DNA of 64,000 nt from an uncultured Gammaproteobacteria bacterium (GTDB lineage Bacteria > Patescibacteriota > Patescibacteriia > S139-126), in assembly GCA_964620905.1 (NCBI GenBank), contig CAZUKA010000001.1, positions 298,589-362,588 on the forward strand, written 5' to 3'. The notes beneath the pieces were generated by a model. The model was not told where the DNA came from. It saw nothing but the letters and a program-made list of their open reading frames with translations, and made no database searches. Numbering within the stretch: the stretch's first letter is position 1; every line of letters starts with the position of its first letter. Of the stretch, positions 61,273 to 64,000 are shown piece by piece. Both the position numbers and the translations under genes were made by a program.

Positions 61273-61770
61273 ATGAAAAAAAATTCAAAACCAACAAATA
61301 AATTGCGAGTCGGTTGGTTCACTTTTAGTTGCTGCGAAGACAGCACTGTGCTCTTTACTGAACTTCTGAATGATCATTGGCAAGACTGGTTGCCTTATTT
61401 AGATTTTAAACACGCCAAAGTATTACAATCACGCAATGTCCTAACCGATATGGATGTGGCCTTTGTTGAAGGTGCGATTGCATCTCAAGAAAAAGAAAAA
61501 GAGTTAAAAAAAATTAGAGCCAAAACCAAAGTCTTAGTAGCAATCGGCGCCTGTGCAGTTACCGGCATGCCATCTGCTCAACGCAACGAATTTCCTGAAG
61601 AGGTTAGACAGGAAATTGATTTTTTACTCACCAAATTCAATTATGGTGATCAAGTAAAAAAACTTGAGGAACTAGTAAAAGTTGATGCCAAAGTTCCCGG
61701 TTGTCCTATGAACGAACAAAAGTTTGTTGAACTTATGGAAGAAATGTTTAAACAATTTAATATAAAATAA
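61273..61770 (+). CDS. [NiFe] hydrogenase small subunit, group-3b-like (HydD/delta-like), truncated to the proximal-cluster domain
   Basis: KLRVGWFTFSCCEDS, VAFVEGAIAS, KVLVAIGACAVTGMP, KVDAKVPGCPM align with the N-terminal half of sulfhydrogenase delta/NuoB-like small subunits. There are 4 Cys only, and 165 aa. Confidence 0.75.
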   Translation: MKKNSKPTNKLRVGWFTFSCCEDSTVLFTELLNDHWQDWLPYLDFKHAKVLQSRNVLTDMDVAFVEGAIASQEKEKELKKIRAKTKVLVAIGACAVTGMPSAQRNEFPEEVRQEIDFLLTKFNYGDQVKKLEELVKVDAKVPGCPMNEQKFVELMEEMFKQFNIK

Positions 61771-63063
61771 ATGCACCTTATTGACTTTGATTTAAATATC
61801 AATGAAATCACCAAAGTAGAAGGATCAGCGGGACTTGATGTCAAAGTTACTGGTGGTAAAGTCGAGTATGTAAAATTTAAAGTTCAAGACTATAAAAGAT
61901 TTTATACTCAAGCTATCCAAGGAAAGCCAATTGCTGCTGTCCCTCAACTCTTATCCAGAATTTGTGGCACCTGTAGTATCGCCCATCTAATTGCCAGTAT
62001 TGAAGCCGTAGAAAAAACTTTAGGTTATCAGCCCACTCCGCAAACAAAAATTCTTCGCGATCTTACCTATCACGGATTGATTATTAGAGACCACGCTCTT
62101 CATCTTTATGTTTTTGTTCTGCCAGATTTATTTAATAAAGATTCTTTACTTGAATTTGATGAAACCGACAAATTACAACACCAGCTTCTCCATGATACTT
62201 TTGCTGTCAAAAGTGTTGGCAACAACTTAGCTAAATATACCGCCGGGCGTAGTGTCCATGCGCCATTCCCAGTACCCGGAGGATTTTTAAAAATTCCTGA
62301 CAATCAAGGTAAAACTGCTTTGCTTGAAGAAATGGAAAAAGTTAGACCAGCAGTTTTGAGGTTAATCGAGCTATTTTTAAATTCTACTGACACTCTGATT
62401 CGCCCAACCAACTACGCAGCATTAACCAGTGATAATTATTCATACCTTGAAGGTAAGCTTAGCGATCTCAATGGCGTTATCGCCGAAGAAGCAGAATTTC
62501 GCAATCACCTGGAACATGTAGTACTACCTTATTCCCAAGCTTCTGCTTATACCTTTGCTGGTCAACCCTACCGCGTGGGAGCGCTGGCTAGAATAAATCT
62601 GAACCAACAAGCCCTAAACCACCGAACCAAAAGAGATTGTAGTCAGGCTCTACAAGTCTTTCCTTCTCATAATGCTTACCACAACAACTTAGCCCAAGCT
62701 ATTGAAATCTTACACTCTATTGACGACACTATTGACCTTTTGAAATCAAATAATTTTCAACCGGAAAAACCAAATAAACTCGATATCAGACAAGCCACTG
62801 GCGTAGGTGTAGTAGAAGCTCCTAGGGGAACACTTTATCATAAACTTGAAATTGATGAAAAAGGAATAGTTACTAAAGGTGAAGTAATAGTACCAACTGG
62901 CCAAAATCAAATTACTATTGAACTTGATATTGCTGAATACATCCAAAAAAATCTTGACCAACCAAAAAAAGAGCTGGCTTTAGCTTGTGAAAAAATTATC
63001 CGTGCTTATGACCCCTGTATGAGCTGCGCTTCTCATTTTTTGGAAGTTAATTGGTTAGAATAG
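61771..63063 (+). CDS. [NiFe] hydrogenase large subunit (group 3-like, 430 aa)
   Basis: N-terminal L1 motif RICGTCSIAH and C-terminal L2 motif DPCMSCASH, followed by an 8-residue extension (FLEVNWLE). The ATG directly follows the small-subunit TAA. Confidence 0.9.
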   Translation: MHLIDFDLNINEITKVEGSAGLDVKVTGGKVEYVKFKVQDYKRFYTQAIQGKPIAAVPQLLSRICGTCSIAHLIASIEAVEKTLGYQPTPQTKILRDLTYHGLIIRDHALHLYVFVLPDLFNKDSLLEFDETDKLQHQLLHDTFAVKSVGNNLAKYTAGRSVHAPFPVPGGFLKIPDNQGKTALLEEMEKVRPAVLRLIELFLNSTDTLIRPTNYAALTSDNYSYLEGKLSDLNGVIAEEAEFRNHLEHVVLPYSQASAYTFAGQPYRVGALARINLNQQALNHRTKRDCSQALQVFPSHNAYHNNLAQAIEILHSIDDTIDLLKSNNFQPEKPNKLDIRQATGVGVVEAPRGTLYHKLEIDEKGIVTKGEVIVPTGQNQITIELDIAEYIQKNLDQPKKELALACEKIIRAYDPCMSCASHFLEVNWLE

Positions 63064-63421
63064 CCACTACCTTTTTAGCTAATAATTTAATATCCCCTTG
63101 CGATGGGATACCAATAATCCTTAAGGAGAGTTCGGGATTTATTTTTTTTATAAGTTTAAGTTCAGTAGCTAGATCATAATCATGTAAACTAAACCGACGC
63201 TGGTCTTTTATTTTATCGAGATCAGTAATTAAACATACTTGATCTAAATTTTTGACTACATCAATAATCCACCAAATAGATTCGGCGGGAGGAATGATTT
63301 GCTCTTGCGGATCTTGATGAATAAATTCCGCTGCAGGCATCATTTTTTTTAAATAAGGCACCAGTTTTAGCGCCAGGGAATCTTCTGGTAAATTAGGGTT
63401 GCCAAAAACGGATATTCTCAT
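63047..63421 (-). CDS. Hydrogenase maturation endopeptidase (HycI/HybD family)
   Basis: MRISVFGNPNLPEDSLALKLVPYL...FIHQDPQEQII...WIIDVV matches the maturation protease N-terminal pattern (MrilvlGiGN.l..Ddg.G..v...L). Overlaps the large-subunit 3' end, convergent. Confidence 0.7.
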   Translation of the reverse strand: MRISVFGNPNLPEDSLALKLVPYLKKMMPAAEFIHQDPQEQIIPPAESIWWIIDVVKNLDQVCLITDLDKIKDQRRFSLHDYDLATELKLIKKINPELSLRIIGIPSQGDIKLLAKKVVAILTN

Positions 63422-64000
63422 TTTTGAAATTTAATTTTTCCTTTTTTTATGTCTTGAGGTTGTTTGAGCGATTTAATCTTTTGGGGATGTAAAATATTAT
63501 CAACGACATTCTGTGAGAAAATTTTAGCATCAGAAAAATCAATAATTATATTTTTTCTTATGATTGCCTGTTGCCAAATATTAAAATAAATATTATTTAA
63601 CTGCAACTGGTAAATGTTATCAAGTATTTCATCTTTATTTCCTACCGCCACAACTACTCCAAAATGGTGATAAACCAAATTGCCAACTTCTGCTTTTAAT
63701 TCTGTGGGTAACAAAACTTTTTTGAAAATTATATTTCCCAATGTTGTTTTTGTATGCAAAGTGACCAACCTTTTTTTAGAAACATAATCAATTTTTGTTA
63801 ATCGAGAAATATTCAATAAATGAGCCAGCGCATAGGCTGGGCCGTTCTGCCTATCAATTTGATTGTTTTTGATATCGTCAGCGTGATCCAATGCAAAACA
63901 ACGCAAAATGTCACTCTCCCCCAATTGGATTAAATGATGATGTTGGGCATATTTAGCCAAAGTTGACGGTGCGGCAGTAATAATATGTTGTCCTAAATCT
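63418..64000 (-). CDS. Hypothetical protein, partial (the reading frame stays open upstream to the window edge)
   Basis: The frame is open from 64000 down to stop TGA at 63418. The track start at 63960 is an internal TTG. ATGA overlap with the protease gene suggests co-transcription. Confidence 0.4.
   Translation of the reverse strand, partial: DLGQHIITAAPSTLAKYAQHHHLIQLGESDILRCFALDHADDIKNNQIDRQNGPAYALAHLLNISRLTKIDYVSKKRLVTLHTKTTLGNIIFKKVLLPTELKAEVGNLVYHHFGVVVAVGNKDEILDNIYQLQLNNIYFNIWQQAIIRKNIIIDFSDAKIFSQNVVDNILHPQKIKSLKQPQDIKKGKIKFQK

Follow-up and report, generated by a model that had tools for sequence, protein, structure and literature searches.

The stretch of DNA analyzed here (the window) comprises 64,000 nucleotides of contig CAZUKA010000001.1 (positions 298,589 to 362,588) from a bacterium of the candidate phyla radiation (CPR) and encodes, close to its end, the small subunit (61273-61770, + strand, 165 amino acids [aa]) and the large subunit (61771-63063, + strand, 430 aa) of a [NiFe]-hydrogenase. 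Taken as a whole, the evidence is probably best explained by a minimal cytoplasmic hydrogenase of the hyd2 type found in CPR bacteria and DPANN (Diapherotrites, Parvarchaeota, Aenigmarchaeota, Nanoarchaeota, and Nanohaloarchaeota) archaea, an enzyme that would carry one iron-sulfur cluster and depend on a separate, exchangeable redox partner. Judged by its gene content and sequences, the locus is a typical member of a clade that has already been published. Jaffe et al. (BMC Biol 18:69, 2020; PMC7304191) split the group 3b-related hydrogenases of CPR bacteria into hyd1 and hyd2 and described the hyd2 clade as CPR specific, with a consistently truncated small subunit (mean of 164 aa versus about 250 aa) and without the co-located beta and gamma subunits, which adjoin hyd1 only. 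The same study found a hypC-like family near hyd2 and, near a subset of the hyd2 loci, a PF07992 flavoprotein family and a Fe-S family. The window locus agrees with this description throughout, having a 165-aa small subunit, no beta or gamma genes nearby, a HypC-like open reading frame (ORF), and a CPR host. An earlier note on this DNA, whose two ORFs (61273-63063) are present as described, was right to see a group 3b-related [NiFe]-hydrogenase, but the truncated form that it singled out had already been reported as the widespread clade hyd2.

A small subunit with a single predicted cluster

The small subunit matches the Pfam family Oxidored_q6 (E = 7.5e-20) and spans only positions 4 to 149 of the 261-position profile of HydD, the sulfhydrogenase delta subunit. 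It aligns to residues 11 to 153 of the delta subunit of Pyrococcus furiosus soluble hydrogenase I (SHI), over the very motifs quoted in the earlier note, and the profile alignment bears out the claim that the protein corresponds to the N-terminal half of group 3b delta subunits and ends before the region with the medial and distal cluster cysteines. A search of 5.8 billion proteins returned 2,356 matches; among the 120 top homologues listed, lengths range from 156 to 213 aa (median, 165), with 18 to 33 residues past the GCP motif. The window protein has 21 residues past this motif, none of them a cysteine. In a representative set of 150 sequences at 50% identity, aligned with hmmalign, 17 of the 23 short forms (≤208 aa) contain no cysteine in the post-GCP tail, including all those of the hyd2 type, whereas the long relatives possess tails of 100 to 125 residues with 8 to 10 cysteines. 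Read from these alignments, the small subunit is the flavodoxin-like proximal-cluster domain alone, in the form characteristic of hyd2, the domain for the medial and distal clusters having been lost.

Structure comparison points the same way. The AlphaFold2 (AF2) model of the small subunit (predicted local distance difference test [pLDDT], 89; predicted template modeling score [pTM], 0.85) finds its best whole-chain match in the Protein Data Bank (PDB) in HydS (7t2r_E; template modeling [TM] score of 0.79 on the query and 0.73 on the target), followed by HoxY (5xf9_C; 0.78 and 0.72, respectively). The P. furiosus delta subunit fits the model via its N-terminal domain alone (target TM of about 0.48), and NuoB-type chains trail, with TM scores of 0.53 to 0.61. 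HoxY and HydS, the latter from the HydABCSL enzyme of Acetomicrobium mobile, resemble the window protein in their length of about 180 aa and in their proximal-only architecture, at a sequence identity of 22 to 23%. In the HoxY, HydS, and NuoB systems, the proximal cluster is the direct electron donor to a cofactor of the partner protein. Because single-cluster small subunits are normal in these systems, the lack of an intramolecular relay is not an anomaly, and the proximal-only architecture is not anomalous in itself. Thus, the statement that only the proximal cluster is retained, leaving electrons without an intramolecular path to a partner, holds as far as the absence of the medial and distal clusters is concerned, but the missing relay is the usual condition in such enzymes.

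The likeness to HoxY and HydS does not extend to the rest of these systems. Their partners are fixed, namely, the NuoEFG-like HoxFU or HydABC subunits encoded in the same operon, which is not the case here, and their large subunits are more distant from that of the window (E values of 1e-33 to 1e-42 versus 1e-57 for group 3b). The locus accordingly falls outside group 3d: the architecture of the small subunit is HoxY-like, but there are no HoxF or HoxU genes at the locus, and the large subunit is nearer to group 3b.

A tandem-cysteine motif in the place of CxxC

The small subunit contains exactly four cysteines, C20, C21, C94, and C144, all of which are invariant in 25 relatives with 55 to 85% identity, the first two within an invariant F-[ST]-C-C-E-D-S-T stretch. 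The tandem-cysteine motif C20-C21-E22-D23-S24 is encoded at 61330-61344 (+ strand), and CCEDS is found in all 25 aligned relatives. C94, the predicted third ligand (61552-61554, + strand), lies in GACA and aligns with C111 of Nqo6 and with GACAV of P. furiosus HydD, and C144, the predicted fourth ligand (61702-61704, + strand), lies in an invariant position within PGCPM and aligns with C140 of Nqo6. In an hhalign comparison with Thermus thermophilus Nqo6 (a query sequence identical to PDB entry 2fug_6; probability, 96%), C20, C21, C94, and C144 pair one-to-one with C45, C46, C111, and C140, the ligands of cluster N2, in agreement with the earlier description of SCCEDS as a NuoB-like CC motif. 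Tandem-cysteine ligation of cluster N2 is documented (PMC8042128). From the alignment, the small subunit would be expected to bind a single proximal cluster, presumably of the [4Fe-4S] type, through C20, C21, C94, and C144.

The register of the motif relative to the canonical CxxC is the same in the hmmalign and PDB alignments: C21 corresponds to the first cysteine (Cys1), Ser24 stands in the place of the second (Cys2), and C20 is an extra cysteine immediately upstream. Alignments to the HydD, Vhu, and Frh small subunits agree on this register with the hmmalign alignment of the 150 representatives. The CC pair is present in 118 of the 120 top homologues. The earlier note also likened the CC pair to group 4 hydrogenases, the small subunits of which, as far as is known, keep CxxC. 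Among the representatives, 11 carry three cysteines in the form CCxGC, and 8 of these are ordinary long small subunits (241 to 266 aa) with 8 to 10 further cysteines, which rules out the CC pair as a peculiarity of the hyd2 clade. Because CCxGC occurs in long, three-cluster small subunits, the upstream cysteine reads as older than the truncation, and what is distinctive of hyd2 in these alignments is the loss of Cys2.

With NuoB and its Thermus counterpart Nqo6, the small subunit shares the Oxidored_q6 fold family, a similar size, a single [4Fe-4S] cluster (predicted here), and the four aligned cysteines, including the C45-C46 pair. However, it is far less similar in sequence to NuoB than to group 3 small subunits, and its matches to the NCBIfam NuoB models are weak (E values of 3e-4 to 6e-3, with cut-offs of 116 to 283 bits). 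The ligand set of a tandem CC and two single cysteines is there, but the pairing with NuoD in a membrane quinone reductase is not: the partner is a Ni-Fe large subunit with all four metal-binding cysteines, no membrane subunits are encoded at the locus, and there is no quinone chemistry. Most likely, the CC pairs of hyd2 and NuoB arose independently.

Other families of short small subunits (152 to 191 aa) read CDEGC or DCEGC, with an aspartate beside or replacing a ligand cysteine. Unusual first cysteine motifs were seen in the representatives P0253, P0256, P0259, P0268, and P0291; in P0330 and P0337; and in P0283, P0288, P0300, and others. Across the representative set, the first cysteine motif of group 3 small subunits is evidently more variable than the textbook CxxC. 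In a few distant representatives, the small-subunit domain is combined with other domains. It is accompanied by a response-regulator receiver, HATPase_c, and Fer4 in P0370 (859 aa) and by Fer4 and the H-domain of [FeFe]-hydrogenases (Fe_hyd_lg_C) in P0375 and P0379; P0354 (566 aa) is a fusion of the small and large subunits.

A large subunit with all signature residues and a short tail

The large subunit matches the NCBIfam models ShyA (2.9e-68) and HydA (4.1e-63), with scores far below the equivalog cut-offs (231 versus 700 bits), and its best PDB match is HyhL of Thermococcus kodakarensis (5yxy_A, 1e-57). All signature residues of [NiFe]-hydrogenases are in place, namely, the four metal-binding cysteines, the glutamate of VEG, and the arginine of APRG, and 69 family members share E17, C65, C68, R352, C416, C419, and H422 without exception. 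The L1 motif RICGTCSIAH (61957-61986, + strand), with the predicted Ni/Fe ligands C65 and C68, takes the form R[IV]CGTCSxAH in all 72 family members compared. The C-terminal motif DPCMSCASH (63010-63036, + strand) supplies the predicted ligands C416 and C419 and the cleavage-site residue His422. By these matches, the large subunit is of the [NiFe]-hydrogenase type and related to group 3b.

In sequence, both subunits are closest to P. furiosus SHI (HydBGDA; 9nez and 9e1j) and T. kodakarensis Hyh (HyhL; 5yxy); a literature search found no paper accompanying the structures of the P. furiosus alpha-delta heterodimer. The group 3b enzymes differ from the window locus in several respects. Their delta subunits are 256 to 266 aa long, and the long relatives carry 8 to 10 more cysteines past the GCP motif, compared with 165 aa in total here; they possess the canonical CxxC; and they are completed by beta and gamma diaphorase subunits. 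The window locus lacks both the cysteine-rich C-terminal domain and the beta and gamma genes and therefore does not qualify as a member of group 3b proper.

A very short tail of the large subunit is common to both. As the earlier note stated, the window protein keeps DPCMSCASH and then ends with eight residues, FLEVNWLE (63037-63060, + strand), which presumably form a propeptide. The family consensus of this tail is FL[KE][VL][NK]W, with F423 and L424 invariant, and the tails of 54 of 71 members are 7 to 9 aa long. In T. kodakarensis HyhL and P. furiosus HydA, both of 428 aa, the corresponding histidine is residue 424 and is followed by only four residues. Because the group 3b archetypes have 4 residues and 7 to 9 are the norm in the family, the tail cannot be called unusually short, as had been proposed. 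Tails of a different kind were found in a few large subunits of the Moraniibacteria type (L011, L020, and L023), where 34 to 35 lysine-rich residues end in runs of histidines (...KKHHSHHH); L011 and L023 have no adjacent protease gene, and L020 has one.

Putative maturation genes and the conserved neighborhood

Convergent with the large-subunit gene lies a gene for a protein of 124 aa (63047-63421, - strand). The 3' ends of the two genes share 17 nucleotides (nt) (63047-63063), such that part of the stretch that encodes the tail of the large subunit is antisense to the C terminus of the putative protease; comparable 3' overlaps of 20 to 62 nt occur at L029, L032, L033, and L057. The window protein has no Pfam match, and neither a phmmer search of the PDB sequences nor a PDB search with a 25-sequence profile found a relative; its match to NCBIfam is weak (E = 0.006). 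However, it clusters with 55 proteins encoded beside hyd2 large subunits, and 3 of 25 members of this family, the window protein not among them, reach Pfam HycI, one representative with an E value of 4.3e-6 (27 bits, above the cut-off of 23). Residues G7, D14, D54, H80, and D83 are invariant in the family, and D14, D54, and H80 are taken here to be equivalent to E16, D62, and H93 of HybD. The AF2 model, built from an alignment with 11 database homologues (pLDDT of 85), has a single significant PDB match, Escherichia coli HybD (1cfz_A; E = 2.9e-4; TM score of 0.64). Given the clustering, the HycI match of a relative, the invariant residues, and the HybD fold match, the 124-aa protein was accepted as a divergent maturation endopeptidase of the HybD/HycI type (PF01750), with predicted activity. 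The earlier proposal of a cognate protease next to the large subunit thus gained support from the HycI-matching family and the fold match, and this neighbor would be the enzyme that removes the tail.

The neighborhood of hyd2 was surveyed by calling ORFs and clustering the encoded proteins, and the counts below refer to the 42 loci flanked on either side by 5 kb or more. The prevailing order is that of the small-subunit and large-subunit genes, followed, in convergent orientation, by the protease gene, DUF6390, an EamA transporter gene, and HypC. The protease is found near hyd2 at 35 of the 42 loci, the EamA transporter at 26, DUF6390 at 25, and HypC at 12. In the window locus, a 60-aa HypC-like ORF (beginning MCFQLSK) lies 2 kb downstream of the large-subunit gene on the extended contig (L001) and matches Pfam HupF_HypC with an E value of 2.8e-5, below the cut-off. 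A literature search on Hyp maturation genes in CPR bacteria turned up no paper.

DUF6390 (PF19927, 2e-59) directly follows the protease gene, for example, at L064:4688-5455 (- strand), L046:12144-12929, and L073:9723-10523. It occurs at L064 and 35 other loci, with invariant residues C19, C32, H136, H137, C163, H224, and C229, and is possibly a metal-handling maturation factor; no mention of DUF6390 was found in the literature. In the window locus, the slot that DUF6390 fills in most relatives is taken by a gene for a 252-aa protein, the 3' part of which lies at 63418-64000 (- strand), with the start beyond the window (full gene, L001:12146-12904). This protein has no Pfam match but contains a HypC-like "GNLVYHHFGVVVAV" stretch; a diverged DUF6390 was considered and rejected (hhalign probability, 1.3%), and it is position that ties the gene to the hydrogenase. 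The EamA/drug-metabolite transporter (DMT) family gene is found just past the window end (L001:12891-13787, - strand; compare L046:12871-13794); DMT transporters are not known to import nickel. In one group of Moraniibacteria-type loci, a SET-domain gene (PF00856, 7e-22) directly precedes that of the small subunit and is read in the same direction; it was seen at L015 (407-835) and at 7 further loci, including L018, L019, L022, L024, L030, and L038.

Redox partners are linked or fused to hyd2 in relatives

At 14 of the 42 loci, a redox partner, that is, a ferredoxin and/or a flavoprotein, is encoded within about 5 kb of hyd2. The ferredoxin is small (74 to 103 aa) and has three cysteines (CxxAxxC...CP; Fer4_13/15). 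The flavoprotein is of the ferredoxin/rubredoxin reductase type in bacteria (Pyr_redox_2 with Reductase_C or Rubredoxin_C) and resembles thioredoxin reductase (TrxR) in archaeal loci; a TrxR-like flavoprotein adjoins or is fused to the hydrogenase at L027, L054, L066, and L077. Four loci (L026, L057, L071, and L080) show the order ferredoxin, reductase, small subunit, and large subunit, which mirrors the order beta-gamma-delta-alpha of the P. furiosus genes; at L071 and L080, the reductase gene shares 4 nt with the small-subunit gene. At L062, the reductase and the small subunit form a single ORF of 581 aa, and fusions of this type make up at least 15 distinct clusters at 90% identity (570 to 629 aa; 48 to 57% identity) in NCBI, JGI, ENA, and Logan data. 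In P0246 and L054, a hyd2-type small subunit is fused to a TrxR-like flavoprotein, and in a distant representative, P0250, to a NuoF-like flavin mononucleotide/4Fe-4S module. Such fusions constitute Rosetta stone evidence that the single-cluster subunit would dock to NAD(P)H-oxidizing flavoproteins.

The window itself differs from these loci. A tblastn search of the 64-kb window with all members of the reductase, ferredoxin, DUF6390, and HypC families found none of them; scans of all 71 window ORFs for cysteine motifs revealed no ferredoxin or other redox partner; and none of the genes called on L001 over the 10 kb preceding and the 7.4 kb following the subunit genes encodes a partner. The closest relatives (L004 to L006) have no nearby partner either. 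Direct contact of the proximal cluster with ferredoxin or another carrier, as had been suggested, is therefore backed by the neighborhoods and fusions of relatives but by nothing in the window.

Integrity and context of the locus

The stop codon of the small-subunit gene directly abuts the start codon of the large-subunit gene (TAA/ATG, zero gap). These genes are nucleotide identical in two independent Logan assemblies, and a JGI assembly differs by 7 nt that leave the small-subunit protein unchanged. Compared with relatives 82 to 87% identical, both subunits show a proportion of nonsynonymous differences (pN) of 0.06 to 0.10 versus a proportion of synonymous differences (pS) of 0.63 to 0.74 and are thus under strong purifying selection. 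Upstream of the small-subunit gene lies a divergent MgsA/RarA gene, and the remaining genes of the window are housekeeping genes, such as those for DnaE, tRNA synthetases, GyrB, and the F1Fo ATP synthase, a content typical of a small genome; the guanine-plus-cytosine content of the window is 30 to 39%.

When 185,579 species genomes were scanned with a sequence pattern, a relative was present in 506. The best 80 loci belong to many Patescibacteria lineages and to metagenome-assembled genomes (MAGs) labeled as DPANN (Pace-, Woese-, and Nanoarchaeota); among named relatives, Candidatus Paceibacter and Patescibacteria MAGs are the nearest. The module of small subunit, large subunit, and protease, with CCEDS, is found in the DPANN-labeled MAGs at L039, L043, L054, L059, L066, L068, L074, L077, and L081. 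One of the archaeal-labeled contigs carries archaeal transcription factor E (TFE; L043:18880-19629), and another carries HypA (L081:8028-8342). This distribution suggests gene transfer of the hyd2 module between CPR bacteria and DPANN archaea. At two archaeal-labeled loci the subunit genes stand apart, separated by a SnoaL-like gene at L043 (10471-10779) and by four ORFs at L039.

A search of the main text of Jaffe et al. (2020; PMC7304191) for the term "cysteine" led to the Ehr proteins only. The tandem-cysteine swap, the reductase fusions, the module with the protease, DUF6390, and EamA, and the presence in DPANN archaea appear to be absent from that main text; the cysteine swap and the fusion evidence extend the published description of the clade incrementally.

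Proposed mechanism and alternative explanations

In the hyd2 scheme favored here, the large subunit would hold a complete Ni-Fe site, probably matured with the help of the nearby HypC-like chaperone, and its eight-residue tail would be trimmed by the adjacent divergent HybD-like protease. Because the small subunit lacks medial and distal clusters, electrons would pass directly between its single cluster and a cofactor of a detachable partner. In relatives, this partner would be the three-cysteine, mono-cluster ferredoxin together with the flavin adenine dinucleotide (FAD)-dependent flavoprotein of the NAD(P)H:ferredoxin reductase type; for the window enzyme, it would be supplied in trans, because none is encoded beside the hydrogenase. 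The most likely role would be the venting or uptake of H2, by which a fermentative organism could balance its NAD(P)H and ferredoxin pools.

Several points weigh against this reading. No redox partner is encoded in the 64-kb window or in the 7.4 kb downstream, and about two-thirds of the relatives likewise have none nearby. A motif screen of the window for HypA, HypB, HypD, HypE, and HypF was negative. Three hyd2-like representatives read CSEDS, keeping C20 without C21; given the existence of the CSEDS, CDEGC, and DCEGC forms, the fourth cluster ligand may vary, with the invariant residues E22 and D23 as candidates where it is other than C21. The cluster type, the tail cleavage, and the direction of catalysis, and with it the H2-based redox-balancing role, are all inferred, and the function of hyd2 "remains uncertain" in the published account (Jaffe et al. 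2020, PMC7304191).

As a tentative extension, well short of likely, hyd2 may be viewed as a "plug-and-play" core, the exposed tandem-cysteine port of which would have been wired repeatedly, through operon linkage or gene fusion, to the three-cysteine ferredoxin and to NAD(P)H flavoprotein modules of at least three unrelated kinds. Genomes without a partner gene would then use any available carrier, possibly one from the host of the episymbiont. The series from CxxC through CCxxC to CCxxS among group 3 small subunits would replay the origin of cluster N2 of complex I independently and may tune the redox potential of the cluster for such direct exchange.

The absence of partner genes in cis, together with the negative Hyp motif screen of the window and the highly reduced genomes of CPR bacteria, could also mean that the heterodimer has no dedicated partner and serves to sense H2 or to regulate, or is a decaying remnant. 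This is unlikely, because the residues for catalysis and cluster binding do not vary and are under strong purifying selection, the protease and HypC-like genes are kept, clustering of the neighborhoods associates no signaling domain or regulator with the clade, and members of the family occur in 506 species genomes.

Also unlikely is a hydrogenase that confurcates or bifurcates electrons, coupling both NAD(P)H and ferredoxin to H2, although a low-molecular-weight ferredoxin and an FAD flavoprotein do occur in one operon with the hydrogenase in relatives, the closest structural analogue, HydS, belongs to a bifurcating NiFe enzyme, and a NuoF-like fusion exists. A ferredoxin reductase with a three-cysteine ferredoxin forms the ordinary, linear class I chain of P450 and dioxygenase systems, which speaks against bifurcation, as do the fused forms, such as that of L062, that have no ferredoxin gene nearby. 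There is no sign of a second electron path or of a bifurcating flavin, and the window encodes nothing of the kind.

The best sequence matches of both subunits are the group 3b enzymes of P. furiosus and T. kodakarensis, and the locus might accordingly be part of a classical tetrameric group 3b (sulf)hydrogenase, with its beta and gamma subunits encoded at other sites of the genome. In [NiFe]-hydrogenases, electrons are relayed onward from the proximal cluster by the medial and distal clusters. The delta domain that carries these two clusters is absent here, and with this wiring domain missing, the tetramer is unlikely. Furthermore, beta and gamma genes are absent from the 10 kb before and the 7.4 kb after the subunit genes; near 69 related loci, clustering brought out no recurrent redox-partner families besides the ferredoxin reductase-type and TrxR-like flavoproteins and the ferredoxin, HydB and HydG queries not having been run; and the partners that are linked or fused to hyd2 are nonhomologous flavoproteins. 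In the published comparison, beta and gamma are co-located with hyd1 only (Jaffe et al. 2020, PMC7304191).

Finally, the idea that a frameshift, a mis-assembly, or a mis-called ORF near 61770 cut a normal delta subunit of 250 aa, a worry raised in the earlier note, has for it only the a priori expectation that group 3b delta subunits measure about 250 to 260 aa and can be dismissed with near certainty, since the ATG of the large-subunit gene directly follows the TAA and leaves no coding space for a lost domain, no downstream cysteine-rich frame exists, independent assemblies yield the same sequence (Logan) or the same protein (JGI), all 120 homologues listed are equally short, the published clade mean is 164 aa (Jaffe et al. 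2020, PMC7304191), and purifying selection on the protein is strong.

Significance

CPR bacteria and DPANN archaea account for a large share of microbial diversity, and their energy and redox metabolism is mostly inferred; hyd2 is one of their few recurrent redox enzymes. As a typical member of a published clade, the window locus adds modestly to this picture on its own. The restriction of the small subunit to a predicted N2-like, tandem-cysteine cluster, the linkage and fusion to partner proteins, and the fixed module of protease, DUF6390, EamA, and HypC translate into testable hypotheses for the function of hyd2. The ligand swap offers a comparative handle on the tandem cysteines of complex I, and a [NiFe]-hydrogenase that nature has pared down to two subunits and about 600 residues may be of interest to enzyme engineers.

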